Below are positions 6,296 to 59,416 of a DNA stretch of 64,000 nt, one piece after another. This DNA comes from Candidatus Omnitrophota bacterium (GTDB lineage: Bacteria; Omnitrophota; Omnitrophia; Omnitrophales; JACQQS01): positions 2,393 to 66,392 of the forward strand of contig JACQQS010000017.1 of NCBI GenBank assembly GCA_016206925.1, in the 5' to 3' direction. Positions within the stretch are counted from its first letter, which is position 1. The number at the start of each line of letters is the position of its first letter. Below the pieces are notes generated by a model, which made no database searches, was not told where the DNA came from, and saw only the letters and a program-made list of their open reading frames with translations. The translations under genes and the position numbers were made by a program.

Positions 6296-6324
6296 TTGAC
6301 ATCGATCAGACTCTACCCAATAAT
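6296..6324 (+). promoter_or_regulatory. sigma70-type promoter candidate for the atp operon
   Basis: TTGACA (6296-6301), 17-nt spacer, AATAAT (6319-6324). It lies about 50 nt upstream of atpH. Confidence 0.5.
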
Positions 6325-6376: not shown

Positions 6377-6733
6377 ATGCAAGCACACGGACATAAGGAA
6401 CAAAAAGAGTCGGCTTCTTTAATTCCGCTCATCGTAAAGAAAGAGCGGGAACTTGAAACCGCCCTCGAACAGGCCGAAGCCAGAGCTAGAAACATCCTCG
6501 CAAAGGCTCAGAACGATTCGAAGCACATCCTTGAAGAGGCTAGAACAAAGGCCGCTGCCGAAGCGGAAACTTTGCTCGTGCGGGGCGAGAAGGAAATCGA
6601 GCAGGAAGTAAATCGAATCCTCGCGGCCGGCAAGGAAGAGGCACAAAAACTCAAAGCTTCCCTTTCCTCAAAAATCACGGAGGCTGCAGCAGTCGTATCG
6701 GAATTCATTTTGCCCAACGGGAAATCATCATGA
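6377..6733 (+). CDS. atpH: A/V-type ATPase peripheral-stalk subunit H/G
   Basis: Small Ala/Glu/Lys-rich coiled-coil protein. First gene of an H-I-K-E-C-F-A-B-D ordered operon. ATGA overlap with atpI. Confidence 0.7.
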   Translation: MQAHGHKEQKESASLIPLIVKKERELETALEQAEARARNILAKAQNDSKHILEEARTKAAAEAETLLVRGEKEIEQEVNRILAAGKEEAQKLKASLSSKITEAAAVVSEFILPNGKSS

Positions 6734-8601
6734 TTATTTCGATGACACATTTGGAAATCACCGGGCTTAGAGAGATTCTGCACGACGCTGTCCAGGCGCT
6801 TCAGGGGTTGGGCGTCACGCATATCGAAGAGAGCAACCCCCGCGAGCGTAAAGGCGGAAAGAGTTTAAAAACGGTCGCGCTTGAAGAAAAAAAGGCGGCC
6901 GAACGCCGCGATCTCGAAGCCATTGAGAATATGATCAAGGAAATGGTTCCTCTAGTACGCTCCTCCAACATTTCCGCAGACAAGAAAGAATATCTCACCG
7001 ATCCGCAGGAATTTGATTCCATCCTTACTAAATTAAAATTTGACCGCGACAAGCTGATCGGCCTCTCTAAGGAAAAAACCGAGATGAGCGCCCAGCTAGA
7101 AATGGCCAAAAAATACCGCGAAGTACTTAAGATTCTCCCGGCTGTCCTCAGCGGTTCGCAGGCCACACAAGCAGTTAACTATTTTGCGATATCCATTGAA
7201 AAAAGCGCTCTCCCGGATTTAAAAAATGCGTTCAGGCACGAAATCAACGGCACCGTTTCAATCCGCACGGTTAGATGGAAAGGTACCCAGCTGATCGGCG
7301 TCGTATCTTTCCCCGCCGCTTTGGCCGAGGACGTAAAAGACGTCGCTTGGAAACAGGGGGCCACCGAGATTATCCTTCCCAGTGAATTTCGCGGTAAACC
7401 GGTTAAGGAAAGTCTTGTGGAAATCGAACGGAGACTTTCGGCGCTGCCCCGAAAGATCGGTCAGATCGATCTGGAAATATCCTTGTATCTAAAGGAAAAC
7501 GCACCAAGAATTTTACGCATTCATCAGGAAACGGAGGACGGCCTGGATCGTTTCCGTATCCTCGGCAGTGTTGCCGAATCCAAATATTTATTTGTTCTTT
7601 CGGTTTGGGTCCCGACTGAAAAAGCTCAAGCCGCCATGTCCGCCCTTAAAAACCGTTTCCGCGATTTAATTTCAATCAACGAAATCGAGATTGAAGAATG
7701 GCATAAGGAAGAAATTCCAGTCACGCTCAAAAATCCAGGATTTCTGAAGCCGTTTGAACTTCTTCTCTCTTTCTTCCCCCCGCCCATTTATGGAACGCTG
7801 GATGCAACGTTTCTTCTCTTCCTCACTTTTCCTGTTTTTTTCGGGCTGATTTTGGGCGACATCGGCTACGGCACCATCATGCTGGCTATTATGCTGTGGG
7901 TTCGCGGGAAAGCAGGTGCAAGCGAACAGCTCAAAGCTGTTTCTGCTGTCGGTTTGTGGTGTGCGGGATGGTCGATTCTTTTTGGATTTGTTTTCGGCGA
8001 AGCATTCGGAAATTTGCTGCACGGAACCTTAAAACCGCTCTGGAATGACCGCATGCTGATTACAACGGAATACCTGATCCTTTCCATCATCATCGGTATA
8101 TGCCACATTTATCTCGGGCTCTTTCTTGGTTTCTACCTCGGCATAAAAGAAGGCCACGGCAAGCATGCCTGGGAAAAACTCGGATTTATTCTTTTCCTCA
8201 CCGGATCGCTATTAGCCCTTTCTTCACAGATGTTCGCGCCGGGAATCTTTTTGAAAGTGGGATTGGTCATGATCGGCGCTTCTATTCTTCTTCTGGGATG
8301 GGCGGCGGGCGTGGCCGGATTAATTGAAATTTTTTCCGTGATCAGCAACGTGCTTTCTTACGCCCGTATCATGGCCATCGGCGTTGCCTCCGTAGCGCTG
8401 GCTGAAGTAGCCAATGAGTTTGGCGGCGCCGGCGGATTTTTTGCCATTGTGATAGCCGTGCTTGTTCACGGAATCAACATGCTTCTTGGAATGTTTGATC
8501 CCACCATACAGGGCCTTCGGTTGCATTATGTTGAATTTTTTACGAAGTTCTACCAGTCTGGCGGCCGTGAGTTCCAGCCGCTTCAAAAACGAGGAGGATG
8601 A
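6730..8601 (+). CDS. atpI: A/V-type ATPase subunit I (a-subunit, proton/sodium channel)
   Basis: 623 aa. Soluble N-terminal half plus a polytopic C-terminal half with the conserved SYARIMAIGVAS arginine motif. Confidence 0.9.
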   Translation: MIISMTHLEITGLREILHDAVQALQGLGVTHIEESNPRERKGGKSLKTVALEEKKAAERRDLEAIENMIKEMVPLVRSSNISADKKEYLTDPQEFDSILTKLKFDRDKLIGLSKEKTEMSAQLEMAKKYREVLKILPAVLSGSQATQAVNYFAISIEKSALPDLKNAFRHEINGTVSIRTVRWKGTQLIGVVSFPAALAEDVKDVAWKQGATEIILPSEFRGKPVKESLVEIERRLSALPRKIGQIDLEISLYLKENAPRILRIHQETEDGLDRFRILGSVAESKYLFVLSVWVPTEKAQAAMSALKNRFRDLISINEIEIEEWHKEEIPVTLKNPGFLKPFELLLSFFPPPIYGTLDATFLLFLTFPVFFGLILGDIGYGTIMLAIMLWVRGKAGASEQLKAVSAVGLWCAGWSILFGFVFGEAFGNLLHGTLKPLWNDRMLITTEYLILSIIIGICHIYLGLFLGFYLGIKEGHGKHAWEKLGFILFLTGSLLALSSQMFAPGIFLKVGLVMIGASILLLGWAAGVAGLIEIFSVISNVLSYARIMAIGVASVALAEVANEFGGAGGFFAIVIAVLVHGINMLLGMFDPTIQGLRLHYVEFFTKFYQSGGREFQPLQKRGG

Positions 8602-8602
8602 A

Positions 8603-8950
8603 ATGTTAGGTAAAGGAAGAAAGATTTTAGCATTAGGACTTCTAATCATAGTGGGTTCGCTCTTGGCGGCGCCATTCGCGCTTGCCGTGGAAGGCGCGGC
8701 CGAATCGCATGGCCCCGCTTCTGTCGGGGACGGTCTTAAAGCCATCGGCGCCGGATTGGGTGTCGGTCTGGCCGTCGGGCTTGCCGGGCTCGGAACCGGA
8801 ATTGCGCAATCCAGAATCGGCGCGGCCGGTGCAGGCACCATTGCGGAAAATCCCAAGCTATTCATTTTGATGCTGATTCTAGTCGCGCTTCCCGAAACAG
8901 TCATCATTTTGGGATTCGTCATCAGCTTTTTAGCGCTAGGAAAATTTTAG
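8603..8950 (+). CDS. atpK: A/V-type ATPase proteolipid subunit K (c-ring)
   Basis: ATG sits 1 nt after the atpI stop. Gly-rich helix GAGLGVGLAVGLAGLGTGIAQSRIG and ion-binding helix LVALPETVIILGF. Extra N-terminal hydrophobic segment. Confidence 0.85.
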   Translation: MLGKGRKILALGLLIIVGSLLAAPFALAVEGAAESHGPASVGDGLKAIGAGLGVGLAVGLAGLGTGIAQSRIGAAGAGTIAENPKLFILMLILVALPETVIILGFVISFLALGKF

Positions 8951-9061
8951 TAACAGGTAACGAGAAACGAGTAACGGAAAAATCATATTTGAAAAATAAA
9001 AAATGCTGTTTGAAGACATGATTGCATTATCCCGTTTCTCGTTACCTGTTTCACGTTACAC
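8950..9061. repeat. Intergenic inverted-repeat hairpin (18-bp perfect stem, 63-nt loop) starting at the atpK stop codon
   Basis: AACAGGTAACGAGAAACG (8952-8969) is the exact reverse complement of CGTTTCTCGTTACCTGTT (9033-9050). The arms are made of GTAAC(A/G)G-like words. Confidence 0.8.
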
Positions 9062-9076
9062 TCAACTTGGGGTCCC

Positions 9077-9667
9077 ATGCAGCAAGAAGCAGACGTATTG
9101 ATTTGTTTGGAAGAGCAGATCCGCGAAAAATGCGAGGCTACTGTGCAGAAGGCTGAAAGCGAAGCCGCTGCGATGCGGAAAAAGGCACAATCGGATGCTG
9201 CTCAAATTGTTGCCGACGCACGCGCCAGAGCGGAAGCAAAGTTCACGCAAATCCGTCTGCGCTGTAAGTCGCAGGCCGCCCTCGAAGCAGGCCAGCTTCT
9301 AACGCGCGTAAAGGCGGAAGCCGTCAGCGAATCTATTAAGCTGGCCGGTTCCCGACTCGAGAATGTGCAAACCTCGCCGCGATATAAGTTCGCGCTTGCG
9401 AAGTTTCTCTCGGAAGCTTTGGAAGCTTTAAAGCCCTCGAGCGGCCCGTTTCGTATTATCGCACGGCGGGAAGACGAAAGTACATTAAAGGATTTGCTTT
9501 CCCACCAACGGGTTAATGCATCGATCGACCCCAGCGGAATTTTTTCCGGCGGTCTTGAAATTGTGGATGAGAAAGGTCATATGCGCGTCGTGAACACGTT
9601 CGAATCCCGTCTACGCCAGGGCTTCGAAGCGATCAGCGATCGCGTCCGGAAGGTCCTGCATGTCTGA
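9077..9667 (+). CDS. atpE: A/V-type ATPase subunit E
   Basis: N-terminal Ala/Glu-rich coiled coil plus C-terminal globular domain (GGLEIVDEKGHMRVVNTFESRL). Operon position fits. Confidence 0.8.
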   Translation: MQQEADVLICLEEQIREKCEATVQKAESEAAAMRKKAQSDAAQIVADARARAEAKFTQIRLRCKSQAALEAGQLLTRVKAEAVSESIKLAGSRLENVQTSPRYKFALAKFLSEALEALKPSSGPFRIIARREDESTLKDLLSHQRVNASIDPSGIFSGGLEIVDEKGHMRVVNTFESRLRQGFEAISDRVRKVLHV

Positions 9668-10703
9668 TTTTAATTATCTGAATGCCCGCATACGTTCTTC
9701 AAAAAAGATGCTGTTATCGCAAACCGATTTCGAACAGCTACTCGGTTCCGATTCAATTACCCAGATCAAGAACTGGCTCCTGGATTCCCCGCGCGGCGCT
9801 GACGTGCAGGAAGGCATTGCTGTCCACGAAGGGTTTGAAGGTCTTGAAAGCGGGCTTTCCAAGCACATGGAGCGTACTTACCGGAAACTGCTTGACTGGG
9901 CCGGTGACGATGCCCAAGCGCTGATTCAGGCCATTCTCCGCCGCTGGGACGTGCACAATTTAAAGACGCTGATCCGCGGAAAATATGCCGGGGTACGCGA
10001 GGAAGAACTGCTGTCGGCATGCATGCCGGCCTGTGATTTCACCTGGGACGAACTTGCGGAATTGGCCAGACAGCCGACGGTGCGGGATCTGGTCAACTTA
10101 CTCCTTACGTGGAACACCAGCTTGAAACGGCCGATTCTGAAACATCAGGAGTTTATTGCCAGCGGTCAGCGTGAAGCACTCACGGCGCTCGAATTTGCGT
10201 TGGACAATTATTACTACGAACTGGGCATAACGCACGCGGAAGAGTTGGCAGCCGATGCCGAACCCGTCATTTACCTGCTCAATATGGAAGCGGATATCGC
10301 GAACATACTCACGGTTTTGCGTTTGCTCGCCATCGAGGATCGCGAGAAAATCAAGTCCTTTTTGATTAACGGCGGGCATCTGGGGCTTGGCACCATACAT
10401 GGTCTTATTTACGCACCGACGCGGGGAGACGTTCTTGAAAAGCTCCGGTTGAGCTATCTTGGCCGCGCCGTTTCAAAACTGGAAATGGCCCAGCCGGAAA
10501 TTTCCAACATTGAGAAAGTTTTTCGCGCTGTCGTCAATGATTTTGCGTTAAAAAGCGGAAAGGACGATCCGCTTTCCATCGGTGTGGCGATTAACTTCAT
10601 CTGGAGAAAACAGACCGAGTTTACAAATTTGCGGCTGATTATTAAATCAAAAACTTTCGGTTTCTCCCGGAACCAGGTCGAGCAGGAGTTGGTGCATGGG
10701 TAA
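9660..10703 (+). CDS. atpC: A/V-type ATPase subunit C (eukaryotic d homolog)
   Basis: 347 aa all-helical protein, starts YLNARIR. Operon position between E and F. Confidence 0.8.
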   Translation: MSDFNYLNARIRSSKKMLLSQTDFEQLLGSDSITQIKNWLLDSPRGADVQEGIAVHEGFEGLESGLSKHMERTYRKLLDWAGDDAQALIQAILRRWDVHNLKTLIRGKYAGVREEELLSACMPACDFTWDELAELARQPTVRDLVNLLLTWNTSLKRPILKHQEFIASGQREALTALEFALDNYYYELGITHAEELAADAEPVIYLLNMEADIANILTVLRLLAIEDREKIKSFLINGGHLGLGTIHGLIYAPTRGDVLEKLRLSYLGRAVSKLEMAQPEISNIEKVFRAVVNDFALKSGKDDPLSIGVAINFIWRKQTEFTNLRLIIKSKTFGFSRNQVEQELVHG

Positions 10704-11016
10704 GATTTTGGCTTTGTCTCTTCCTGAGCTAGCCGGCGGCTTCCGCCTGGCCGGACTTGACACCGTCAGCGTCCGTTCCGATGAAGAAACGTACCGCGCT
10801 CTGATTCAGACAACGCATGACCGGAGTTATGAAATTATTGTACTTCCCCAGGAGCACTTGACGAATTTGGACGAAAGGAAGCGCAAGGAAATTGACCATT
10901 TAACGGAACAGGTTGTCGTACCGATTCCCATGACCAATCTTGAAAACCAGCCGTCGCCGAAAGGTTTTGTTTCAGAACTGGTTCGCCGGGCGATCGGGTT
11001 TCAAGTCAAAGTCTGA
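10696..11016 (+). CDS. atpF: A/V-type ATPase subunit F
   Basis: 106 aa. GFRLAGLD motif. Operon position fits. Confidence 0.8.
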
Positions 11017-11036: not shown

Positions 11037-12836
11037 ATGTCCACGGTTAAAGGAAAAATCATCAAAATCTCGGGCCCTGCCGTCATTGCAGACAGTATGA
11101 CCGGCGCGCGGATGTATGACATCTGCCGTGTCGGAAAAGCCGGCCTAATCGGTGAAATTATCCGCTTAAACGGCGACACGGCTTTTCTGCAGGTTTACGA
11201 AGACACTTCGGGGCTCTATCTGGGCGAGCCCGTTGAAAGCGAAGGTATTCCGCTTTCTGTGGAGCTGGGGCCCGGATTGCTCAGCGGCGTTTTTGACGGA
11301 ATCCTCCGCCCCCTCGAAAACATAGCCCAAGCCAGCGGTGATTTCATCGCGCGCGGCATTCGAACACCCGCATTGAATCGCGAAAAAAAATGGTCCTTTA
11401 AACCCGCTCTGAAAAAAGGCGATAAGGTCGGACCGGGCGATATTCTTGGCGAAGTCCAGGAGACAAAAAGTTTGGTGCACCGAATCCTGGTTCCTCCCGC
11501 GACAAAACCCGGCGTGATCAAGCGAATTGAAGCCGGCAGCTTTACCGTAACAGAGCCAGTGGCCGAGCTCGAAGACGGCACGAAGCTTCAGCTCATGCAT
11601 TATTGGGGCGTAAAATCTCCGCGGCCGGTCAAGAGAAAGTTTGAACCCACAAAACCGTTTATCACGGGCCAGAGAATATTTGATGTGCTTTTCCCTATCG
11701 CGCTTGGTGGCAACGCGGCCATTCCGGGTCCGTTCGGTTCCGGAAAAACCGTAGCCGAACAAACACTCGCAAAATTCTCCGAAGCCGACATTATTATTTA
11801 CGTCGGATGCGGCGAGCGCGGCAATGAAATGACCGATGTTCTCGCGGAATTTCCGGAGCTCACCGATCCAAAGACCGGCGGCCCGCTTATGGACCGTACG
11901 GTACTTGTAGTCAATACATCGAATATGCCAGTGGCCGCGCGCGAAGCTTCCATTTACACGGGTATCACGCTGGCGGAATATTATCGCGATATGGGTTACA
12001 CCGTAGCGCTTATGGCGGATTCCACATCGCGTTGGGCCGAAGCGCTGCGCGAAATTTCATCGCGGCTTGAAGAAATGCCCGGCGAAGAGGGTTATCCGAC
12101 CTACTTAGCCACGCGCCTTGCCAATTTCTATGAACGCTCGGGGCTCGTAGAAACGCTCGGCGGCGGGGCGCGACAGGGTTCGGTAACAATTGTCGGCGCT
12201 GTTTCGCCGCCCGGAGGGGATTTTTCCGAACCGGTTACGCAGGCAACGCAGAGGATCGTCGGCGGATTCTGGGCGCTCGATGCACAACTTGCCTACCGCC
12301 GCCATTTCCCTTCCGTGAACTGGAACAAGAGTTACACCTTGTACTACGGGCTTCTTCAAAAATGGTATGAAAAAGAAGTCGACCCGGCTTGGACGCGCCA
12401 GCGCGAACGGATGTTCAATCTGATCGGAAAAGATGCGTCCCTCCAGGAAATTGTGCAACTCGTCGGCCCCGATGCTTTGCAGGATTCCGAACGCCTCATT
12501 CTCGAATTCGGCCGCATGATCCGTGAGGACTTCCTGCAGCAGAATGCCTTTCACGAAGTTGACTGTACTTGCCCGCTTAAAAAGGCGCATGCAATGCTTT
12601 CCATGATTTTGAAATTCTACGATCTAGGCGTGCACGCAGTCGAATCCAAAGTTCCGATTGATGAGATCAGCAAAATGCCCGTTAAGGAAGAAGTGGGCCG
12701 CTTGAAGGAAGTTCCCGCCGCTGATTTCGAACGCGCCATTAAAGATTTGAGCCGCCGGCTTGAAATTGATTTTTCAGCACTCGCGCGTAAAACTCATGAG
12801 GCGTTAGCTCCGAAAGAAACAGCGCCCGTTTCTTAA
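11037..12836 (+). CDS. atpA: A/V-type ATPase catalytic subunit A
   Basis: Walker [10 protein letters not shown]. The non-homologous insert region typical of A subunits is present. [19 protein letters not shown]. Confidence 0.95.
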
Positions 12837-12856: not shown

Positions 12857-14269
12857 ATGTCACTTGCAACTCAAGAATTTAAAACCGTAAAGTACGTATC
12901 AGGGCCGCTCATTTTTGTCGAACAGGGCGAGCGTTTTCCCTACGGCGCCATTCTGGATATTTTGCTTCCCAATGGCAGCATTCGAACCGGACAGGTGCTG
13001 GAAATTTCGAAAACGCATGCTGCCGTTCAAGTACTCGAGCAAACGGCCGGCATCGATGTCAAGGATACCGCAGTCCGCCTCCGCGCCGAAGTTGCAAAAA
13101 TAGGCGTGTCTAAAGATATGGTCGGCCGCACATTCAACGGTGCGGGAAAACCCATCGACGGGCTCCCGGACATTCTGCCGGAAACACAGCTTCCCATCAT
13201 TGGTCAGCCTATCAATCCGGTCCGCCGCGACAAACCCAACGATTTTGTGCAGACAGGTATTTCTTCCATTGATGGATTTAACACATTGGTCCGCGGACAG
13301 AAACTTCCCATTTTTTCCGGCTCCGGTCTGCCCGCCAATGAAATTGCTGCCCAGATTTTGGCGCAGGCGAAAGTACGCGGCGAAGCGGAACAATTCGTCG
13401 TTGTATTTGCCGCCATGGGTATTACACAGCGTGAGGCCGCGTTCTTTCTCGAAAGCTTCGAGGAAACTGGCGCAAAAAGCAACGTCGTGACGTTTTTAAA
13501 TTTGGCCAACGACCCCACCATCGAACGTTTGCTGACACCGCGCACGGCACTTACGGTCGCAGAATTTCTCGCGTTCCATCATGATTACCAGGTTTTAATT
13601 ATCCTCACCGATATGACCAACTACTGCGAAGCGCTTCGTGAGATCGGTACTGCCCGCGAAGAAATTCCAGGCCGCCGCGGCTATCCGGGCTACATGTACA
13701 CCGACTTGGCGCAAATTTACGAACGCGCCGGACGTATCAAAGGCAAGAAAGGCTCGGTCACGCAGATTCCGATCCTTACCATGCCGGACGACGATATTAC
13801 GCACCCTATTGCCGATCTGACCGGTTACATTACGGAAGGGCAAATCGTTTTGTCGCGCCAGCTTCACAGGCAGGGTATTTATCCGCCGATCGATATTCTT
13901 CCCAGCCTCAGCCGTCTTATGAATAATGGCATCGGTGAAGGCAAGACCAGGGCTGATCACCGCGAAGTCGCGAATCAGCTTTACGCGTGTTACGCCAACG
14001 GCCGCGATATCCGTAAACTGGTGGCCATTATCGGGGAAGATGCTTTGTCGGAATTGGACAAGAAATATTTGAAATTTGCAGAGCGCTTCGAAGCGGAAGT
14101 GATCGGGCAAGGCACGATCGACCGCAACATTGAAGACACGCTCCAGCTCGGCTGGCAACTGCTTTCCCTGCTTCCCACTTCGGAACTCAGGCGCGCCAGC
14201 AAAAAAACCATCGCGAAGTATCTGACTCCCATTATGAAAGATGGCGAATCCGCACTACATACCAAGTAG
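12857..14269 (+). CDS. atpB: A/V-type ATPase subunit B
   Basis: 470 aa. Motifs [27 protein letters not shown] and PDDDITHPI. Confidence 0.95.
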
Positions 14270-14617
14270 CAAGTAGCGAAGTAGCAAGGAAAATACAAGA
14301 GAAATTGACTATGATCGAAACTGTTGAGCAAGAGAATTTACAAAAAGGATTTAGAGGTTTAAAAGCCTGGCAAGAATCTTATCAACTCGCTTTGGAGGTA
14401 TACAAAGCAACAGAAGCTTTCCCAATGCAAGAGCGATTTAGCCTCACTTTGCAAATCAGAAAAGCAGCCTTGTCGGTAAGCAGTAATATTGCAGAAGGGT
14501 ACGAAAGAAGATCACGCAAAGAATTCGCTAAGGGTTTAATGAGGTCTGTATGCGCGTAGCATCTCCGTCCATATTTTTTCCTTTTCCCTTGCTACTTGCT
14601 CCTTCGCTACTTGCTAC
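14266..14617 (+). mobile_element. Inverted-repeat-bounded cassette (IVS-like) carrying a four-helix-bundle ORF, inserted between atpB and atpD
   Basis: The left arm GTAGCAAGTAGCGAAGTAGCAAGGAAAA (14266-14293) overlaps the atpB stop. The right arm TTTTCCCTTGCTACTTGCTCCTTCGCTACTTGCTAC (14583-14617) is its reverse complement apart from a 1-nt and a 7-nt indel. Confidence 0.6.
14311..14559 (+). CDS. four-helix-bundle protein (23S rRNA intervening-sequence protein / Avd family), C-terminally truncated, possible pseudogene
   Basis: LKAWQESYQLALEVYKATEAFPMQERFSLTLQIRKAALSVSSNIAEGYERRSRKEF fits the family pattern. It ends at about 82 aa, where family members as I recall are about 115-125 aa. Confidence 0.65.
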   Translation: MIETVEQENLQKGFRGLKAWQESYQLALEVYKATEAFPMQERFSLTLQIRKAALSVSSNIAEGYERRSRKEFAKGLMRSVCA

Positions 14618-14635: not shown

Positions 14636-15253
14636 ATGGAACAAGTCTCTCCTACAAGAATGAATTTGATTCAGCGGAAGCTGCAGATCAAAATGGCCAA
14701 ACAAGGCGTCGATCTGCTCAAGAACAAGAGAGACGCGCTCATCCGTGAATTCTTCGAACTGGTGAAGCCGCTTGTCGCGTTGCGGGAAGAATTAAACGCA
14801 AAGCTTTCGCGCGCAGGTTGGAACCTGTTTCTCGCTTCCTCCTACGAAGGCGAAGAGCGCGTTCGTTCTGCCGGAATGGCCGCCAAGGATAATTTTACCG
14901 TAAAGACCAAAAACCGGAATCTCTGGGGCATACGCATTCGCGATATTGAGCCTACTCCCCGCAAACGAAGTCCGCTTGAACGCGGCTATGCGGTCAGCGG
15001 TGTCGGCGCACGCATCGATCAAGCCGCAGACGCATTTGAGGAACTCATCGATACGGTTCTCAAACTTGCGCCGGTTGAACAGAAATTGAAGAAATTTGGC
15101 GAGGAGACAAAGAAAACAACACGGCGCGTTAATGCTCTTGAACAGGCCTTGATTCCGCGCTTGATCTCCGAACGACGTTACATCCAGCAGGTCCTCGAAG
15201 AACGCGAGCGTGAAGATGTATTTCGCCTAAAACACATCAAGCGAAAGCGGTAG
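14636..15253 (+). CDS. atpD: A/V-type ATPase central-stalk subunit D
   Basis: Starts VSPTRMNLIQRKLQIKMAKQGVDLLKNKRDAL and ends TTRRVNALEQALIPRL, typical of D subunits. Confidence 0.9.
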   Translation: MEQVSPTRMNLIQRKLQIKMAKQGVDLLKNKRDALIREFFELVKPLVALREELNAKLSRAGWNLFLASSYEGEERVRSAGMAAKDNFTVKTKNRNLWGIRIRDIEPTPRKRSPLERGYAVSGVGARIDQAADAFEELIDTVLKLAPVEQKLKKFGEETKKTTRRVNALEQALIPRLISERRYIQQVLEEREREDVFRLKHIKRKR

Positions 15254-18190: not shown

Positions 18191-18747
18191 TGTGGGGCAC
18201 GGGCGTACTTAAAGGAATGGCCGTAACGATCAAGAATTTTTTCGATACATACACTTCGAAAAACGGAATTTTCACGGTGGAATATCCCGAGAAGCGCCTG
18301 CCTGAAAAAGAACGCTTCCGGAATTTTCCGATACTTGTTTATGATGAAAAACCGGAAGAGCTCCGTTGTGTCGCCTGCGATATCTGCGCCAAAGAATGCC
18401 CACCAAAATGTATTACCATTGTCAAAGCAAAGGATGCCCAGGGCAAACCGCTGAAACAGCCTGAAGTCTTCGACATCGATTTTACCGTTTGCATGAATTG
18501 CGGCATCTGCGAGGAAACCTGCCCCTTTGATGCCATTTACATGGATCATGAATTCGAGCTGGCTGAGTACGACCGCATGGATGCTTTGATTTACAAAAAG
18601 GAGCGGCTTTCCCGCCCTTGGACTCATTTTGAAAAAATCCGCCCCACGGATGCCAAGGAAATCAATGAGAGGCGCGCCAAAGACGCGACAAAAACGGCTG
18701 CAGCTGTTAAACCAGCGCCTCCGCAAGCAAGTAACCAACAAACATAA
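18190..18747 (+). CDS. nuoI: complex I subunit I (copy 1), 2x[4Fe-4S]
   Basis: CVACDICAKECP and CMNCGICEETCP. The ATG at 18190 overlaps the nuoD stop. It sits before nuoH, which is a non-canonical order. Confidence 0.85.
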   Translation: MWGTGVLKGMAVTIKNFFDTYTSKNGIFTVEYPEKRLPEKERFRNFPILVYDEKPEELRCVACDICAKECPPKCITIVKAKDAQGKPLKQPEVFDIDFTVCMNCGICEETCPFDAIYMDHEFELAEYDRMDALIYKKERLSRPWTHFEKIRPTDAKEINERRAKDATKTAAAVKPAPPQASNQQT

Positions 18748-18753
18748 AGGAAT

Positions 18754-18810
18754 GTCATTCCCGCGTAAGCGGGAATCCAGTTGCTAGACCCCCGCTTTCG
18801 CGGGAGTGAC
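18754..18810. repeat. Pair of inverted REP-like units (GTCATTCCCGCGTAAGCGGGAATCCAG type) between nuoI and nuoH
   Basis: ATTCCCGC-gtaa-GCGGGAAT (18757-18776) and CCCGC-tttc-GCGGG (18791-18804). The second unit is an inverted diverged copy of the first. Confidence 0.8.
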
Positions 18811-22873: not shown

Positions 22874-24421
22874 ATGGAATTGCCTGCGCTTAGCTTAATT
22901 ACATTTTCCCCGCTTGCCGGCGCATTCTTGCTGATATTTTTATCCGGCAAGGACGAAAAGATCATAAAAGGCGTTTCTTTGGCTGCAAGCTTTCTGCCTT
23001 TGATCATACTGACCAATGTGTGGTCCCGGTTTGACCCGTTGTCGGCATCACTGCAATTGATTGAGCGCGTTCCTTGGATACCGGTAATGGGCGCGGAGTA
23101 TTTTCTCGGCGTGGACGGTCTTGGCATGTTGCTCGTTCTCCTGACGGCCATTATTTCCCCCATCGCTGTCCTTGCATCTTTCGGGATACATGAGCGCCCG
23201 AAAGCATACATGCTTTTATTTCTGATTCTTCTTACAGGAATTTTTGGCGTATTCACGGCGCAAAATTTCTTTCATTTCTTCCTATACTGGGAAATCGGCC
23301 TTGTGCCCATGTTTTTTCTCATCAAGCAATGGGGCGCGGAAAACCGCGATTATGCGGCTTTTAAATTTTTCGTGTTTACGCTTTTTGGAAGTATCGCAAT
23401 GCTTCTTGCGTTCCAAGTCATCTTTCTTGCGACAGGCACGTTTGACTTTGTGAGGCTTTCCGAAATGGGCAGAAGCGGCGAGCTTTCAAAACTTCTCGCA
23501 CAATTCGCATCCAAGGCAGGAATTCCGTGGCAGGCAAGCACACTTTCCCTCATTGGATTTCTGGCCGTTTCTCTGGCATTTACAATCAAGGTGCCCATCT
23601 GGCCGTTCCATACCTGGCTCCCCGACGCACACACGCAGGCGCCAACACCGGCTTCCATAGTGCTGGCCGCTCTTCTGCTTAAAATGGGAACGTACGGTTT
23701 TTTAAGAATCGCCATGCCGCTTTTTCCGGAGACCGCCAAAGCGCTTGCTGAACCTCTGGCTTATTTCGCGCTCGCAAGCATCATATTCGGCGCGTTTGCA
23801 GCCATGGCCCAGCGGGATCTAAAACGCATGATTGCCTACTCCTCGATCAATCACATGGGTTACTGCATGCTTGGAATTTTTGCAATCGCTTCTATGTCTT
23901 CGACGGATGTTGAAGCCAAGGCCGCCGCGTTGGGAGGATCCATTCTTCAAATGTTTAACCATGGAATCACCGCTGCCGCACTTTTCTTCATGGTGGGTGT
24001 GATTTATGACCGCAAGCATACCCGCAATTTAGAGAAATTTGGAGGTCTGCGCGCCATTATGCCGGTCTATGCCGGACTTATGGTCATTTCTACATTTGCC
24101 TCTGTCGGTCTCCCCGGATTGAACGGGTTTGTAAGCGAATTCCTGATTTTCCGCGGGACTTTTGTTGTGTTTCAACCCCTTACCATTCTGGCGACGATCG
24201 GGCTGGTTGTGACGGCTTTGTACTACCTGCGCATGATCCAGCAGATGTTCCTCGGCCCGCTCAATCCGGATTGCGAAGGCCTTCCCGACATGTCAAAAAG
24301 GGAAATATTCGTCGCTTCGCCGCTCATCGCGCTTATGTTTTTGATCGGAATATGGCCGGGACCTATGCTCAAGCTTACGAATGCGGTGGCTCTCAATTTA
24401 ATCGGAGTTTTTCAGCTATGA
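22874..24421 (+). CDS. nuoM: complex I subunit M (operon 1, first copy)
   Basis: WLPDAHTQAPTPASIVLAALLLKMGTYGFLR. 515 aa. Confidence 0.9.
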   Translation: MELPALSLITFSPLAGAFLLIFLSGKDEKIIKGVSLAASFLPLIILTNVWSRFDPLSASLQLIERVPWIPVMGAEYFLGVDGLGMLLVLLTAIISPIAVLASFGIHERPKAYMLLFLILLTGIFGVFTAQNFFHFFLYWEIGLVPMFFLIKQWGAENRDYAAFKFFVFTLFGSIAMLLAFQVIFLATGTFDFVRLSEMGRSGELSKLLAQFASKAGIPWQASTLSLIGFLAVSLAFTIKVPIWPFHTWLPDAHTQAPTPASIVLAALLLKMGTYGFLRIAMPLFPETAKALAEPLAYFALASIIFGAFAAMAQRDLKRMIAYSSINHMGYCMLGIFAIASMSSTDVEAKAAALGGSILQMFNHGITAAALFFMVGVIYDRKHTRNLEKFGGLRAIMPVYAGLMVISTFASVGLPGLNGFVSEFLIFRGTFVVFQPLTILATIGLVVTALYYLRMIQQMFLGPLNPDCEGLPDMSKREIFVASPLIALMFLIGIWPGPMLKLTNAVALNLIGVFQL

Positions 24422-28121: not shown

Positions 28122-28420
28122 ACCTGGATACCATAACGCTCATATTTGGGACGGGCCTTTTTTTCATAGGTATAACAGGCGTTCTCATCCGGAGAAACGC
28201 CATTGTCGTCTTAATGTGTATCGAACTCATCCTGAACGGCGTCAACTTAACTTTCATCACATTCAGCCACATACATGGAAACCTGGCCGGCCAGGTTGCG
28301 GCTATTTTTGTTATTGTAGTTGCGGCAGCCGAAGCAGCTGTCGGGCTTGCTATTGTCATTGCTGTATTCCGCCGTCATCCTTCCATTAACATCGATGAAT
28401 TTAACGTGCTTAAATGGTAG
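28118..28420 (+). CDS. nuoK: complex I subunit K (copy 2)
   Basis: [12 protein letters not shown] and [12 protein letters not shown]. Confidence 0.9.
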
Positions 28421-30408
28421 CGCTTATTCCTTTACTTCCCGCTTTGGGTGCGGCCGTCAATGGCCTGTTCGGGCGAAGATACATCAAGGAAAACGCCCAT
28501 TGGGTTGCCGTTGGCGCCTGCGGTCTTTCTTTTCTGGCAGCTGTTTTTACTTTCACAAGCTTTCTACGCGAGCCGCAGAGCTACGAAGTGCGGATGTTTG
28601 AGTGGATTGCTGTAGATCCCTTGCGCATCGAACTGGCGTTCCTCGTTGATCCTCTAAGCATGCTTATGGCCATGGTTGTTACGGGAGTGGGTTTTCTCAT
28701 TCATATCTATTCGATCGGTTACATGCACGGCGACGGCGGATATCACCGCTATTTTGCTTACCTCAATCTTTTCATGACGGCCATGCTTCTTCTGGTCTTG
28801 GCCAACAATTATCTTTTGATGTTTCTCGGCTGGGAGGGCGTTGGGCTTTGTTCATACCTGCTCATTGGATTTTGGTTTCATAAAGATTCTGCCGCCAATG
28901 CCGCAAAGAAAGCTTTCCTCGTAAACCGGATCGGAGACGCCGGATTCATTTTGGCCCTTTTCCTAATTTATGGGCAATGCAAAAGCCTGGTCTTTCATGA
29001 TGTCATGTCCCAGGCACATGCTTTCTCAACCGGCTTGGCCACGGCTATTGGAATTCTCTTATTTGTCGGAGCCATGGGGAAATCGGCCCAGATTCCACTT
29101 TACGTATGGCTGCCGGACGCTATGGAAGGACCTACTTCTGTCTCCGCATTGATTCATGCGGCAACCATGGTCACGGCCGGTGTCTATATGGTGGCTAGAA
29201 ATTCGGCCATCTATGCGCTGGCACCGGCTGCACTTAATTTCATGGCTTCTGTCGGCGCAATTACCGCACTTTTTGCGGCAAGCATTGCCCTGGTTCAAAG
29301 GGACATAAAGAAGGTACTTGCTTATTCGACGGTAAGCCAGCTCGGTTACATGTTTCTCAGCTGCGGTGTGGGCGCTTATGTAAGCGGCATGTTTCATTTA
29401 ATGACACACGCATTCTTCAAAGGCCTTCTTTTCCTCGGATCCGGAAGCGTGATTCACGCGCTCGGCGGCGAACAAGACATGCAGCACATGGGTGGTTTAA
29501 GAAAACATATGCCCATTACCGCAGCAACGTTTACCATCGCAACCCTCGCCATCGCCGGAATTCCGCCGCTTGCCGGCTTCTGGAGCAAGGATGAAATCCT
29601 GGCGGAAACCTTCAAGAACGGGCATAAACTCCTCTGGGGAATCGGTGCATTAACGGCGCTCATGACATCCTTCTACATGTTCCGCCTGCTTTTCCTGACC
29701 TTCTACGGAAAGTCGCGCGTTCACCATGACAAGGAACATCATCTTCATGAATCGCCCCGGACCATTACGATTCCTCTTTCGATACTTGCCTTTCTTTCGA
29801 TTTTTGGCGGCGTCCTGCCCGGCTTCCCTCCCGAACGAGGCTGGATCCACGGTTTTCTTTCTCCGGCGATCTCAAGCGTTCACCATGCGAAGGAAATCCT
29901 GCATGGCGCAGCCGAACACGGCGCGCATGCCCTGTCATTGCTGGACTTGACATTGATGGCTGTTTCTATCGGCGCGGCGCTGATGGGTTTGGCTGCCGCG
30001 TGGTACTTTTATCTCATCCGGCCGGCGCTTCCCGGACAATGGGCTTCCCGATTGAAATCAATTCACACACTCCTATTCAATAAATATTGGGTGGATGAAA
30101 TATATCTCAGTGTATTTGTGCGTCCCCTGCTTAAGCTCTGTAACCGCCTGTGGGATTTTGATCTGCAGGGCATTGATGGAATCGTAAACGGAGCATCACG
30201 CGTTGCCGTAAAAAGCGCTGAAGAGTCGGGCAGATTTGATCTCAAATTTATCGATGGCGTTATAAACGATATCGGAAAACTTTTCGACAAGTGGCACGAC
30301 ATCTTAAGACGGTGGCAAACGGGTTTCGTACAGAATTATGCGCTCGTCATGGTCATCGGTGTATTGGTTCTGGCAACCAGCATGTTTTTCATCCCATATC
30401 ACTTTTGA
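28414..30408 (+). CDS. nuoL: complex I subunit L (copy 2) with a lengthened lateral-helix region
   Basis: [23 protein letters not shown]-terminal [11 protein letters not shown].../[11 protein letters not shown]... 26-aa tandem repeat. Confidence 0.9.
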
Positions 30409-30416
30409 AAAATTTA

Positions 30417-30516
30417 AAATTAAAAGTGAAAAATGTAAAAGAAAAAACTAAAGAAATTTATTAAAGCAAAAAAGTTCAAAAAGCTCTTTATCTTTTTACT
30501 TTTTCATTTTTAATTT
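30417..30516. repeat. AT-rich imperfect inverted repeat (about 26-bp arms, 48-nt loop) between nuoL2 and nuoM
   Basis: AAATTAAAAGTGAAAAATGTAAAAGA (30417-30442) versus the reverse complement of TCTTTTTACTTTTTCATTTTTAATTT (30491-30516). One mismatch and two 1-nt indels. Confidence 0.65.
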
Positions 30517-30530
30517 CTAAGAGGATTTTT

Positions 30531-32102
30531 ATGACACATATCTTTGGCACTCCCATTCTCACGCTTTTATGCTTCTTGCCCCTCATCGGAACGCTGGCTA
30601 TCGTGATTTTCACGCGTAAAGATGAGGAGAAAAAAATCAAAAACATCGCGCTGTGGTTCTCGGTGGCGGCTTTTCTCATCTCGCTTTTGATCCTTCCCCG
30701 TTTTCGAACTGACACGGCGGAAATGCAGTTTGTAGAACGAGCCGAATGGATTCCCGCTATCGGGGCAGAATATCTCCTGGGCATCGACGGTATCAGCATT
30801 CTGCTTATCCTGCTGACCACACTTCTAACCGTCATCGCTGTTTTATCTTCATCTACAGCCATTACTGATCGGCTAAAAGAATACTATGGCTCGCTGCTTT
30901 TGCTTGAAACGGGGATGCTCGGAGTATTCATGGCTCTTGATTTCGTTCTCTTTTACGTTTTCTGGGAAGTCATGCTGGTGCCCATGTATTTTCTGATCGG
31001 AATTTGGGGTGGACCCAACCGGCTTTACGCGGCCATCAAATTTTTTCTCTATACGCTCTTCGGGAGCGTTTTGATGCTCCTCGGAATTCTGGCGCTTTAT
31101 TTCCTGAATGCAGATCCGGCATTCGGCAGCGGGGAGCATACATTCAATATGATTACACTTTTTAATGTCCAGCTGCCTTTCCATTTTCAATGCTGGATAT
31201 TTGCCGCGTTCTTTATCGGATTTGCCATCAAGGTCCCTGTCTTCCCGTTTCACACATGGCTGCCGGACGCCCACGTCGAAGCGCCCACCGCGGGAAGCGT
31301 CATCCTCGCCGGCGTTCTGCTAAAAATGGGTACGTACGGCTTCATTCGCGTATGCCTTCCGATGCTGCCCCAGGCATCGGAATTTTTTGCGCCTTTTGTC
31401 GCTGTGTTGGCCATGATCGGCATAGTTTACGGCGCCTTAGTGGCCATGGCGCAAACCGATATCAAAAAATTGGTGGCCTACTCAAGCGTGAGCCATCTTG
31501 GTTTTGTAATGCTCGGGCTTTTTGCCATGAATTCCCAGGGGATAACGGGCGGCGTGCTTCAGATGATCAATCACGGCATATCGACAGGGGCGCTCTTCTT
31601 GCTGGTGGGCATTATTTACGAAAGAAGGCATACGCGGAAAATACAGGAATTCGGCGGCCTAGCGCATGTCATGCCCGTTTATGCGGCGCTCTTTGCCGTC
31701 ACCCTATTCTCATCCATCGGCCTCCCGGGTTTGAACGGATTTGTCGGTGAGTTCCTTATTTTGCTCGGCGCGTTTCAAAAGGAACTCTGGTACGCCGCTG
31801 TGGCTGTTTCCGGAATTGTGCTCGGCGCCGGATATATGCTGTGGCTTTATCAAAGAGTCATGTTTGGAACGGTCACGCATCCCGAAAACAAAATGTTAAA
31901 GGATTGCTCGAGGCGCGAGGTTCTCTACATGGCACCTCTCATCATACTCATGTTGTGGATCGGGATTTACCCGAAACCTTACCTCCGCTTGATTGAATCA
32001 AGCGTTATGGGCACGATTCAATCTCTAAAGCGCCCAAGCGCCGGCCCAGATTTGATGGCTATGGCTTCGCAGACGCCGCCGGAAACTGCGGCACTTATCT
32101 AA
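30531..32102 (+). CDS. nuoM: complex I subunit M (cluster 2)
   Basis: WLPDAHVEAPTAGSVILAGVLLKMGTYGFIR. Strong RBS AAGAGGA. Confidence 0.9.
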   Translation: MTHIFGTPILTLLCFLPLIGTLAIVIFTRKDEEKKIKNIALWFSVAAFLISLLILPRFRTDTAEMQFVERAEWIPAIGAEYLLGIDGISILLILLTTLLTVIAVLSSSTAITDRLKEYYGSLLLLETGMLGVFMALDFVLFYVFWEVMLVPMYFLIGIWGGPNRLYAAIKFFLYTLFGSVLMLLGILALYFLNADPAFGSGEHTFNMITLFNVQLPFHFQCWIFAAFFIGFAIKVPVFPFHTWLPDAHVEAPTAGSVILAGVLLKMGTYGFIRVCLPMLPQASEFFAPFVAVLAMIGIVYGALVAMAQTDIKKLVAYSSVSHLGFVMLGLFAMNSQGITGGVLQMINHGISTGALFLLVGIIYERRHTRKIQEFGGLAHVMPVYAALFAVTLFSSIGLPGLNGFVGEFLILLGAFQKELWYAAVAVSGIVLGAGYMLWLYQRVMFGTVTHPENKMLKDCSRREVLYMAPLIILMLWIGIYPKPYLRLIESSVMGTIQSLKRPSAGPDLMAMASQTPPETAALI

Positions 32103-45816: not shown

Positions 45817-45846
45817 CGTAGGGGAAATTCATGAATTTCCCCTACG
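45817..45846. repeat. 30-nt perfect palindrome, 1 nt from the gph stop
   Basis: CGTAGGGGAAATTCATGAATTTCCCCTACG. Confidence 0.85.
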
Positions 45847-51850: not shown

Positions 51851-51927
51851 TCAATAGAAAACCCCGCTCCGATAAAATAAAATCGGAACGGGGTTTTGTA
51901 TATTTTCGGAAAATATGTTCCGTGTTA

Positions 51928-59266: not shown

Positions 59267-59416
59267 GTGATTCGTGAAACGTGAAGCGAAAAACGAAAAG
59301 CTAAAAACTAAGAGCGGAAAGAAAAAAATTCTTAAGTGTTTTAAGTTTTTGGTTGTGCACTTTTTGTTCTACGCTTTTTGCTCACGTTTCACGCTTCACG
59401 ATTCACGCTTCACGAG
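59267..59416. repeat. Inverted repeat with heptamer-word arms (GTGAANC) between a DsbA-like gene and the aminotransferase
   Basis: The minus strand after the TAA stop reads CTC GTGAAGC GTGAATC GTGAAGC GTGAAAC GTGAGCA. The partner arm GTGATTCGTGAAACGTGAAGCGAAAAACG lies at 59267-59295. Confidence 0.7.

Follow-up and report, generated by a model that had tools for sequence, protein, structure and literature searches.

An ORF-less hairpin with seven-base word arms between atpK and atpE of an Omnitrophica V/A-ATPase operon, probably a member of the 23S-IVS-type palindrome family

The hairpin in the atpK-atpE spacer

The window analysed here, a 64,000-nucleotide stretch of DNA from a Candidatus Omnitrophica MAG, carries a V/A-type ATPase operon with the gene order G-I-K-E-C-F-A-B-D, in which the K-E and B-D spacers are each occupied by a palindromic element. 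The features that frame the first of these elements are as follows.

6296-6324, + strand: sigma-70-like site TTGACA-17-AATAAT, the sole strong one upstream of the atp genes
8591-8597, + strand: strong Shine-Dalgarno sequence of atpK, GAGGAGG, read from the sequence
8603-8950, + strand: atpK, c/K proteolipid subunit of 115 aa (Pfam PF00137, 69.8 bits)
8948-8950, + strand: atpK stop codon TAG (TAA in every relative compared)
8950-8977, + strand: 5' word array GTAACAG GTAACGAG AAACGA GTAACGG, read from the sequence
8952-8969, + strand: left arm of the stem, AACAGGTAACGAGAAACG (inverted-repeat search and folding)
8970-9032, + strand: loop of 63 nt, A-rich, 27% G+C, with a weak internal hairpin (folding)
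9033-9050, + strand: right arm of the stem, CGTTTCTCGTTACCTGTT, pyrimidine-rich and without stop triplets (inverted-repeat search and folding)
9053-9060, + strand: extra 3' word CACGTTAC, complement of GTAACG in a shifted register
9069-9079, + strand: weak Shine-Dalgarno-like GGGG followed by the atpE ATG (9077), outside the stem
9077-9667, + strand: atpE (PF01991)

The gene call for atpK concurs in contig L001, whose sequence is identical. As a site scan of the + strand found neither a promoter-like nor a terminator-like site at the K-E spacer, the hairpin appears to be internal to the atp transcript. Its two arms are each 18 nt long, 100% complementary and separated by 63 nt, and the stem extends to approximately 20 bp when one mismatch is allowed. 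This perfect stem and its loop were first noticed in a sequence-only reading of the DNA and are borne out by the inverted-repeat search and by direct reading. The four arm words listed in that reading are all located at 8950-8977, but only 8952-8969 lies within the perfect stem, and the arm's proposed start at the atpK TAG holds in the sense that the array shares the G of the stop codon, with the stem beginning 2 nt downstream.

The word array has a period of 7, with a self-match of 0.76 that equals the median of the PF05635 class described below (0.76); it is 75% purine and holds three TAA triplets, and its first G doubles as the last base of the atpK stop codon. The fourth word, GTAACGG, is unpaired, its complement CGTTAC being register-shifted to 9055-9060, beyond the right arm, and the extra 3' word in which that complement falls is probably the leftover of a longer arm. 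With the left arm beginning 2 nt past the atpK stop and the last word ending 15 nt ahead of the atpE ATG, the element takes up the spacer between the atpK stop codon and a point approximately 15-26 nt ahead of the atpE start. The arm pattern, searched with up to three mismatches, occurs at just these two sites in the window against an expectation of 0.05. RNA folding gave an MFE of -36.5 kcal/mol (z = -3.9) that none of 200 dinucleotide shuffles equalled, and a separate second fold gave z = -5.0.

Related palindromes in the window and at other PF05635 loci

The atpK-atpE hairpin is one of four such elements in the window, the other three being located as follows.

14264-14617, + strand: atpB-atpD element with arms at 14264-14293 and 14575-14617 and arm words AAGTAGC AAGTAGCG AAGTAGC and so on
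14311-14559, + strand: truncated PF05635 ORF within the atpB-atpD element, 82 aa against 118-126 aa at full length
30417-30516, + strand: ORF-less word hairpin, 16% G+C, between nuoL (28414-30408) and nuoM (30531-32102)
59267-59413, - strand: ORF-less word hairpin, MFE -52.5, z = -8.4, flanked by a class-III aminotransferase gene (57868-59247) and a DsbA-like gene (59417-60430)

The atpB-atpD element is a cassette whose arms show period 7/8, whose left arm contains the TAG stop codon of atpB (14267-14269), and whose truncated ORF is the sole IVP (PF05635) ORF of the window, which holds no intact IVP gene. The hairpin next to the DsbA-like gene reads GTGAAGC GTGAATC GTGAAGC GTGAAAC on its sense strand. 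A scan for inverted repeats with 7/8-nt-periodic arms returned the three ORF-less hairpins in the window, placing the third at 59273-59407, and nothing in ten shuffled windows, and this density, three periodic inverted repeats plus one cassette in 64 kb, compares with three such repeats in 1.0 Mb of unrelated loci. The elements are AT-rich, with G+C of 0.16-0.41 against 0.49 for the window. The arm words of the four copies are unlike one another, and common descent therefore rests on the design and on shared short words, not on alignment.

The design recurs well beyond this genome. A word index returned just three IVP homologues, and the alignment of these three was used for a metagenome scan that yielded a usable set, in which significant inverted repeats flank 55 of the 71 distinct PF05635 loci, with a period of 7 in 47 of the 55, a period of 8 in six, and a median arm of 32 nt. 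The PF05635 ORFs are co-oriented with neighbouring genes in 95 of 112 cases, and in the median the 5' arm begins 2 nt past the upstream stop codon, with 11 nt left between the 3' arm and the following ORF, a geometry that the atpK-atpE hairpin matches in reaching from the upstream stop to shortly before the next start. Stop triplets number 183 in the 5' arms and 86 in the 3' arms; as 7 = 1 mod 3, a heptamer array would walk one stop triplet through all three frames of the 5' arm. Stem mismatches in 49 cassettes, read on the sense strand, showed no excess of G:U over A:C (58 versus 73), and selection on the RNA rather than on the DNA palindrome is accordingly not demonstrated by this measure.

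Several observations tie the ORF-less form to the cassettes. In the 1.3 Mb compared, the 12-mer GTAACAGGTAAC occurs only in the atpK-atpE hairpin and in the arms of four IVP cassettes (L132, L135, L137 and L163). The IVP loci, 282 kb in total, contain another 18 periodic inverted repeats, of which 13 enclose loops no longer than 151 nt, and in one locus (L158) a 39-bp ORF-less hairpin has words in common with the cassette of the adjoining spacer. Arm polarity is not consistent among the ORF-less hairpins outside the window. The resemblance to the atpB-atpD cassette that had been proposed is thus well founded as far as design goes, in the period-7 word arms, the shared words and the paired forms of L158, and similar hairpins were found both in the window and in other IVP loci. 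A literature search on PF05635 cassettes outside rRNA and on heptamer-armed hairpins returned nothing besides a study of the Coxiella IVS.

The proposal that the hairpin derives from an atpB-atpD-type cassette by loss of its ORF was not upheld, as the loop holds no detectable ORF remnant. A profile of 68 IVP proteins scored -1.3 bits against the loop in six frames, with 167 of 200 shuffles scoring as well, tblastn with the IVP ORF of the window found no match, and the loop DNA showed no similarity to cassette inner flanks; these homology tests have low power at 63 nt, and within that power they reveal no residual homology to the four-helix-bundle ORFs of the window or to the IVP profile. Without a PF05635 ORF in its loop, the atpK-atpE hairpin is classed as an ORF-less derivative or relative and not as a full member. 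From their sequences, the truncated ORF of the atpB-atpD element and the ORF-less copies appear to represent a decay series, though the primitive state may just as well be the one without an ORF.

Related operons and known systems

Relatives of the operon were gathered through AtpE homologues and exact-protein look-ups; in an AtpA scan of GTDB genomes, the best identity among the matches listed was 67%. In the relative L082, whose AtpE is 70% identical, the K-E spacer is 21 nt and the B-D spacer 24 nt long and neither holds a hairpin, which indicates that the atpK-atpE and atpB-atpD elements are lineage-specific insertions. Among the six informative relatives (AtpE 52-70% identical), five have a non-homologous hairpin or word arm in the K-E spacer and one has none. 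The folding energies are -21, -32, -45 and -20 kcal/mol in L085, L086, L088 and L089, respectively, and L087 has a different word arm, its contig ending within such a hairpin. The remaining internal junctions of these operons are at most 24 nt long or overlapping. Across 72 V/A-ATPase operons, a count that takes in the window itself and two of its relatives, the spacer after K is structured in 10 of 72 (14%) as against 13 of 291 spacers elsewhere (4.5%, p = 0.0065), with examples in Thermus, Hydrogenedens and Methanosarcina; in Thermus a GC-rich hairpin after the K gene is followed by a T-run. Folding of a fixed 120-nt stretch downstream of the K stop gave an MFE no different from that of other subunits (p = 0.80).

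The nearest studied relative is the 23S IVS with an S23p/PF05635 ORF, known from Coxiella burnetii and Leptospira (PMC4990558). In C. burnetii its terminal stem measures 28 bp, the tandem heptamers differ in number among strains, the S23p ORF is decaying, and RNase III cleaves the IVS in mid-stem in vitro (PMC4990558); for the IVSs of Salmonella, Leptospira and alphaproteobacteria, RNase III cleavage is reported in work cited by the same paper. The atpK-atpE hairpin shares with the 23S IVS the terminal inverted-repeat stem, the heptamers in the 5' arm region, an AT-richness relative to the host, the sense orientation in the host transcript, a dispensable and decaying ORF and a sporadic, lineage-specific presence. 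Unlike the 23S IVS, which lies in helix 9, 25 or 45 of 23S rRNA, it occupies an intercistronic mRNA spacer, lacks an ORF, has a stem of 18 bp instead of 28 bp, and is known here from sequence alone. A classical 23S rRNA IVS location was rejected, as the hairpin lies between atpK and atpE and Rfam identifies no rRNA in the window. Rfam at gathering thresholds returned no match of any kind anywhere in the window; relaxed to E <= 10 around the hairpin, it gave only generic miRNA-precursor matches that reached no more than 20.8 bits, where the thresholds are 54 or higher.

Other mobile or repetitive palindromes resemble the hairpin in part. Correia/NEMIS elements of Neisseria and ERIC elements of enterobacteria are short ORF-less intergenic palindromes that are co-transcribed with their neighbours and whose hairpins are cut, by RNase III in Correia and by RNase E in ERIC, with changes in the stability of flanking mRNA. 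The atpK-atpE hairpin is likewise a short ORF-less palindrome between genes, but those elements keep conserved terminal repeats and target-site duplications, whereas here each copy has arm words of its own and the 7-nt periodic design is all that the copies have in common. A Correia-like MITE was rejected, as the arm words differ among the four copies and no duplication is evident at the ends. The STRR sequences of heterocystous cyanobacteria are tandem arrays of heptanucleotides in intergenic DNA and are similar in both respects; they are described as direct arrays, not as inverted arms around a PF05635 ORF, and the papers listed on them employ the arrays for fingerprinting alone.

Two further comparisons concern expression within operons. 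Stabilisers of the kind seen in selective RNA processing and stabilisation (SRPS) include those of Rhodobacter puf and the E. coli malEFG REP. SRPS operons are also described for Clostridium cellulolyticum cip-cel (PMC4423207) and E. coli (PMC10667835). Like such stabilisers, the atpK-atpE hairpin is stable and immediately follows, within a polycistronic operon, the gene whose product is the most abundant subunit, but SRPS stem-loops are gene-specific and conserved with their gene, while this hairpin belongs to a dispersed family also found at junctions without a stoichiometric step. The atp operon of Methanococcus maripaludis has no internal terminator, and adding one is harmful, with the growth rate halved by terminators inserted at atpK-atpE (PMC10450193). 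Like the ioTTS of that study, a structure between atpK and atpE could reduce downstream expression; unlike it, the atpK-atpE hairpin has no U-tract and a long loop.

Interpretation, alternatives and wider meaning

We consider it probable that the atpK-atpE hairpin is a lineage-specific, ORF-less member of the 23S-IVS-type palindrome family and a substrate of RNase III, with any effect on dosage a by-product. This family consists of widespread and scarcely described palindromes whose long terminal inverted repeats are made of seven-base words and in most cases enclose a small PF05635/TIGR02436 four-helix-bundle gene, and it has settled in intercistronic operon spacers of this Omnitrophica genome. 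The hairpin would be co-transcribed in the atp polycistron and fold as a dsRNA stem of approximately 20 bp, which, by analogy with all IVSs tested, RNase III would cut, parting the atpG-I-K from the atpE-C-F-A-B mRNA. The heptamers and the mid-stem RNase III cut of the Coxiella IVS make the same fate most likely for this stem, which, at 18 bp perfect, lies at the short end among good RNase III substrates. If K and E were translationally coupled, the insertion would also break that link. Any influence on the K:E ratio would be a possible by-product or secondary exaptation and not the reason for the element's existence, and, given its membership in a widespread family, a special role in c-ring dosage is possible but unproven. 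The sequence-only reading had cast the hairpin as a 3' stabiliser or processing site that tunes atpK dosage, a view that the enrichment of structure at K junctions favours and the same element between the equimolar nuoL and nuoM disfavours.

An adaptive version of that view, in which an SRPS-type stem-loop blocks 3'-to-5' exonucleases so that atpG-I-K outlives atpE-D and the c-ring subunit is raised, is in our estimate improbable without being far-fetched. SRPS is an established mechanism (PMC4423207 and PMC10667835); the stem-loop is stable and lies directly after atpK, a natural stoichiometric step; the second atp element likewise follows atpB (three copies) and precedes atpD (one copy); and the unrelated hairpins or word arm in the K-E spacers of five relatives, together with the excess of structured K junctions, speak in its favour. 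The element family itself, however, has no preference for stoichiometry steps, since it also lies between nuoL and nuoM and between unrelated genes, and abutting the upstream stop codon is a class-wide habit not particular to atpK. The hairpin is absent from L082, the fixed-window folding sets K apart from no other subunit, and the junction count includes the window and two relatives. In addition, the Shine-Dalgarno sequence of atpK is already strong and that of atpE weak, the base of a stem only 2 nt from the stop codon would be opened by a terminating ribosome, and the halved growth of M. maripaludis shows the cost of a terminator at this very junction. We think it unlikely that the hairpin is a neutral, selfish DNA palindrome, tolerated in spacers, with complementarity that stems from DNA-level processes and without notable consequence for the RNA; heptamer slippage and intrastrand template switching are the processes that may be named here. 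The Watson-Crick symmetry of the stems without G:U bias, the AT-rich composition, the lineage-specific presence and the decaying ORF all fit such an origin, as does the variation in heptamer number among Coxiella strains, whose IVS the authors deem possibly neutral (PMC4990558). Set against this, the strong co-orientation with host genes, the placement precisely from stop codon to ribosome-binding site and the stop-rich 5' arms are strand-specific and therefore point to expression-level constraints, and a perfect 18-bp stem in an essential operon transcript forms in RNA whether selected or not.

Avd binds nucleic acid, and Avd-like IVP proteins encoded by intact cassettes at other places in the genome might bind the hairpin in trans, for putative mobilisation, protection or guided processing, a scenario that we regard as very doubtful. 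It would account for the likeness in design of ORF-less and ORF-bearing copies, which extends to their words in L158, and it draws on the weak similarity of a full-length IVP to Avd, a protein of DGRs (NF033474; 34.6 bits, below the cut-off of 80), and on the toroidal homopentamer of the Xanthomonas S23p structure, as cited in PMC4990558. The variation of arm words within one genome argues against sequence-specific recognition, the window has no intact IVP gene, and S23p is apparently not produced in Coxiella (PMC4990558). We give a negligible chance to the reading of the hairpin as an intrinsic terminator, an attenuator or a fortuitous palindrome: although Thermus (L004) has the post-K hairpin with a T-run described above, here the loop measures 63 nt, no T-run follows the stem (TTCACGTTACACTC) and the terminator scan makes no call, and we reject an intrinsic terminator on these grounds, while the rarity of the arm pattern, the fold relative to shuffles and the periodic-repeat scan of shuffled windows rule out chance.

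The reading as an IVS-type element bears on a broader matter. To our knowledge, the role of IVS elements and of the abundant PF05635/TIGR02436 four-helix-bundle genes has been a question since the early 1990s, studied almost solely in 23S rRNA. Here heptamer-armed palindromes sit sense-oriented between ordinary operon genes, also as ORF-less miniatures, and occupy precisely the gap that separates the upstream stop codon from the following ribosome-binding site. For annotation, such word-arm hairpins break assemblies, as at the contig end of L087, and may provide the stop codon of the upstream gene. It is a tentative and rather doubtful extension that the IVS is no peculiarity of rRNA but the part so far noticed of a large, hitherto undescribed class of palindromes living in operons across bacterial phyla, which either still have an Avd-like four-helix-bundle gene or have lost it, act as RNase III modules that would cut polycistronic mRNAs at gene boundaries, and have in two copies been exapted for V/A-ATPase subunit ratios. 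The two copies in question sit at K to E and at B to D, both stoichiometric steps. At the scale of a single locus, an 18-bp stem between two ATPase genes offers a simple system for the question of RNase III processing and subunit ratio.

The hairpin and its counterparts in the window

The V/A-type ATPase (atp) operon, with genes assigned by Pfam, is followed downstream by the nuo operon and carries inserts in two of its spacers:
6377-6733, G-like gene
6730-8601, I
8603-8950, K (atpK)
8950-9061, hairpin between K and E
9077-9667, E (atpE)
9660-10703, C
10696-11016, F
11037-12836, A
12857-14269, B (atpB)
14264-14617, cassette between B and D
14636-15253, D (atpD)

The encoded AtpE is NCBI HY587_01305 (100% identity), from a MAG annotated as Candidatus Omnitrophica, and a Logan contig matches the window at 100% identity across 6.2 kb. 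The sole strong promoter-like site for the atp genes lies at 6296-6324, upstream of the G-like gene, and a plus-strand scan of the K-E spacer found no promoter-like or terminator-like site, which places the hairpin inside the transcript; on the same scan an intrinsic terminator was rejected.

As the sequence-only reading had described, a perfect 18-bp stem with a 63-nt loop follows atpK, its arms complementary at 18 of 18 positions:
8952-8969, plus strand, left stem arm, AACAGGTAACGAGAAACG
9033-9050, plus strand, right stem arm, CGTTTCTCGTTACCTGTT

The arm words it listed at 8950-8977, GTAACAG GTAACGAG AAACGA GTAACGG, are likewise present. The opening G of the first word doubles as the final base of the atpK TAG (8948-8950), the stem starts 2 nt past the stop codon, and the fourth word falls outside the stem, with its complement CGTTAC at 9055-9060 in a shifted register. 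The arm has a period of 7 (self-match 0.76) and a purine fraction of 0.75, and its sequence has no other match in the window at up to 3 mismatches (0.05 expected). No dinucleotide shuffle out of 200 reached the stability predicted for the region as RNA (-36.5 kcal/mol, z = -3.9), z was -5.0 in a second fold, and Rfam has no matching family.

Four elements of this design lie in the window, at atpK|E, atpB|D, nuoL|nuoM and DsbA-like|aminotransferase, all starting -4 to +8 nt from the upstream stop and ending 14-26 nt before the next start. Those beyond the atpK hairpin are:
14264-14617, atpB|atpD cassette, arms AAGTAGCAAGTAGCGAAGTAGCAAGG / CCTTGCTACTTGCTCCTTCGCTACTTGCTAC surrounding an 82-aa ORF
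30417-30516, ORF-less heptamer-word hairpin between nuoL and nuoM
59267-59413, minus strand, ORF-less heptamer-word hairpin between the DsbA-like and aminotransferase genes

Both ORF-less hairpins in this list extend from a few nucleotides past the preceding stop codon to 14-19 nt short of the following start codon. The elements have a G+C content of 16-41%, compared with 49% for the window, and a dedicated scan returned three periodic inverted repeats in the window, none in shuffled windows and only three in 1.0 Mb of unrelated genomes. A classical MITE was rejected because the arms differ from copy to copy. The atpB|D ORF, the only IVP (four-helix-bundle) ORF in the window, matches PF05635 (23S_rRNA_IVP, 76 bits) and TIGR02436 ("four helix bundle protein") but is truncated, covering only the first 58-61 profile positions (positions 3-61 of 106) with 82 aa compared with 118 and 126 aa in homologues. 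Since the atpB TAG (14267-14269) falls within the left arm, the element may supply the atpB stop codon.

Elsewhere in the window, two minus-strand genes are separated by 216 nt that contain a perfect 15+15 palindrome without spacer at 45817-45846 (CGTAGGGGAAATTCA|TGAATTTCCCCTACG). At 51854-51901, between convergent genes, a GC-rich inverted repeat of 20 nt around an 8-nt loop has the appearance of a bidirectional terminator. Gaps of unusual length (450-590 nt) without ORFs of at least 80 aa occur at 18191-18780, 23740-24270 and 57419-57867, within or close to the nuo cluster and ahead of the aminotransferase gene; an HMM search found no IVP remnant in these three.

A hairpin design shared with PF05635 cassettes

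Using an alignment of the window ORF and its homologues, we fetched 80 PF05635 loci from metagenomes, 71 of them distinct, and found a significant inverted repeat (z >= 5, at least 15 nt) around the ORF in 55 of the 71. The arms have a median length of 32 nt, with a period of 7 in 47 loci and 8 in six, and 84% have a purine-rich 5' arm. The ORF and the genes beside it point the same way in 95 of 112 cases (p = 2.5e-14), with medians of 2 nt from upstream stop to 5' arm and 11 nt from 3' arm to next ORF. The hairpin design is a class property of PF05635 cassettes, and the proposed resemblance between the atpK hairpin and the atpB/atpD cassette is real, resting on shared period 7, purine bias and placement between stop codon and ribosome-binding site. 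In 1.3 Mb of fetched DNA the 12-mer GTAACAGGTAAC occurs only in the atpK hairpin and in the arm regions of four IVP cassettes (L132, L135, L137 and L163), and it is absent from about 1 Mb of V-ATPase loci.

Similar hairpins also exist beyond the window. ORF-less hairpins of heptamer design are common next to cassettes, where 282 kb yielded 18 further periodic inverted repeats, 13 with a loop of at most 151 nt. A close parallel to atpK|E plus atpB|D is metagenome locus L158, a gene array in which one spacer (427-520) is filled by a perfect 39-bp hairpin without ORF (-67.8 kcal/mol) and the adjacent one (about 2430-2875) by an IVP cassette built of identical words, CGTGAAT/CGTAAAT. At another locus, L098, the cassette appears by eye to lie between sequences resembling tRNA genes (about 170-330 and 690-860).

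That the hairpin is a cassette stripped of its ORF, as had been suggested, could not be demonstrated, and no residual homology to four-helix-bundle ORFs was found in the loop. A profile of 68 IVPs scored the hairpin at -1.3 bits, matched by 167 of 200 shuffles (cassette, 92 bits); tblastn of the IVP ORF gave no match; and similarity of the loop to cassette inner flanks (16 versus 13.9 +/- 1.8 in shuffles) showed no excess. A loop of 63 nt gives such tests little power. ORF decay does occur, as the truncated atpB|D ORF shows, and the ORF-less hairpin could equally be the basic form.

Stop triplets may explain the period itself. They are 2.1-fold more frequent in 5' than in 3' cassette arms of the metagenome loci L090-L169 (183 versus 86; sign test, 1e-4), and all three frames are closed in 29 of 55 5' arms, compared with 10 of 55 3' arms and 8.5 +/- 2.6 in composition-matched shuffles. 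Three repeats of a word of 7 (or 8) nt are enough to place its TAA, TAG or TGA in every frame; in the window, the words GTAACAG, GTAGCAA and GTGAAGC each hold a stop triplet, and the 3' arms nearly none. We hypothesize that a three-frame stop explains the period of 7, which fits about half of the cassettes.

The K-E junction and c-ring dosage

AtpE homologues at 52-70% identity led to seven related loci.

K-E spacers in relatives of the window
L082/L084: 21 nt, unstructured; B-D spacer 24 nt
L085: 48 nt, GC-rich hairpin, -21 kcal/mol
L086: 78 nt, two GC hairpins, -32 kcal/mol
L087: contig begins 49 nt before atpE (1-49), within pyrimidine word arm TTAGCTC TCAGCTC TTAGTTC TCAGCTC
L088: 121 nt (181-301), composite hairpin, -45 kcal/mol
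L089: 61 nt, GC hairpin, -20 kcal/mol

None of these structures is homologous to the window hairpin, which by this comparison is an insertion. The atpK stop is TAA in all relatives and TAG followed by TAA in the window, consistent with an element that abuts or supplies the stop codon. The L087 arm has the same heptamer design with different words and, as its contig starts within that arm near atpE, is a second, independent element at the same junction; the arm probably caused the assembly break. The L088 palindrome is built of nested inverted repeats (GCATCTGAC.../AGATTCTTCG...), unlike the window hairpin.

The sequence-only reading suggested that the hairpin uncouples atpK stoichiometry from the genes that follow, as a 3' stabiliser or processing site. 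Selective RNA processing and stabilisation is an established route to operon stoichiometry. Among relatives K-E is the one junction repeatedly enlarged and structured, and in 72 diverse V/A-ATPase operons it has the largest internal median spacer (23.5 nt; others, -4 to 16) and more structured spacers than other internal junctions (10/72 versus 13/291, Fisher p = 0.0065); downstream of the terminal gene D, which served as positive control, 51% of spacers are structured. In unrelated lineages (L004, L057, L013, L052 and L070), strong ordinary hairpins lie directly 3' of the c/K gene: GC hairpins in Thermus, Hydrogenedens and Methanomicrobiales, and a multi-hairpin spacer of ~197 nt in Methanosarcina. 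The Thermus hairpin is followed by a T-run and resembles an internal terminator.

However, the enrichment at K junctions draws in part on the window itself and on two relatives, a cruder test (MFE of 120 nt past the stop) showed no K effect (p = 0.80), one relative lacks any K-E hairpin, and members of the same element family also occupy nuoL|M and the spacer of an unrelated gene pair. Translation alone could set the K:E ratio, given the strong atpK Shine-Dalgarno (GAGGAGG, 5 nt before the ATG) and only GGGG at atpE, and a stem base 2 nt past the stop codon would be melted by the terminating ribosome. In Methanococcus maripaludis, whose atp operon lacks an internal terminator, the growth rate fell by half when one was inserted at atpK-atpE (PMC10450193). 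On balance, an adaptive role of the hairpin that is specific to atpK is unlikely.

Putative processing of the atp transcript

The experimentally studied relatives are all 23S rRNA intervening sequences (IVSs). That of Coxiella burnetii has a terminal stem of 28 bp, which RNase III cuts midway in vitro, a 5' region with two or three tandem GACAGAT heptamers (number strain-dependent) and a decaying S23p ORF; the excised RNA decays fast, the two flanking fragments occur at unequal levels, and RNase III excision is cited for Salmonella, Leptospira and alphaproteobacterial IVSs (PMC4990558). S23p-type IVSs are closest in design to the atpK hairpin, which nevertheless lacks two of their defining features, 23S rRNA location and the ORF. 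In the part of the literature covered, we found no account of mRNA spacers that contain PF05635 cassettes or hairpins with heptamer arms. Sense-strand mismatches in 49 cassette stems showed no G:U excess that would indicate RNA-level selection (G:U 58, A:C 73).

The anatomy of the hairpin, its family relationship and its insertion are shown by the data, and its processing is inferred. An uncut stem would stop 3' exonucleases, and a staggered mid-stem cut would leave the upstream fragment a half-stem of weak protection; any effect on K versus E could go either way. By analogy with the IVSs, the atpK|E stem most likely holds a site for RNase III, at which cleavage would split the atp polycistron between K and E. 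The inserted element also takes the K-E spacer to 126 nt, compared with about 21 nt without it, and would abolish any translational coupling between the two genes.
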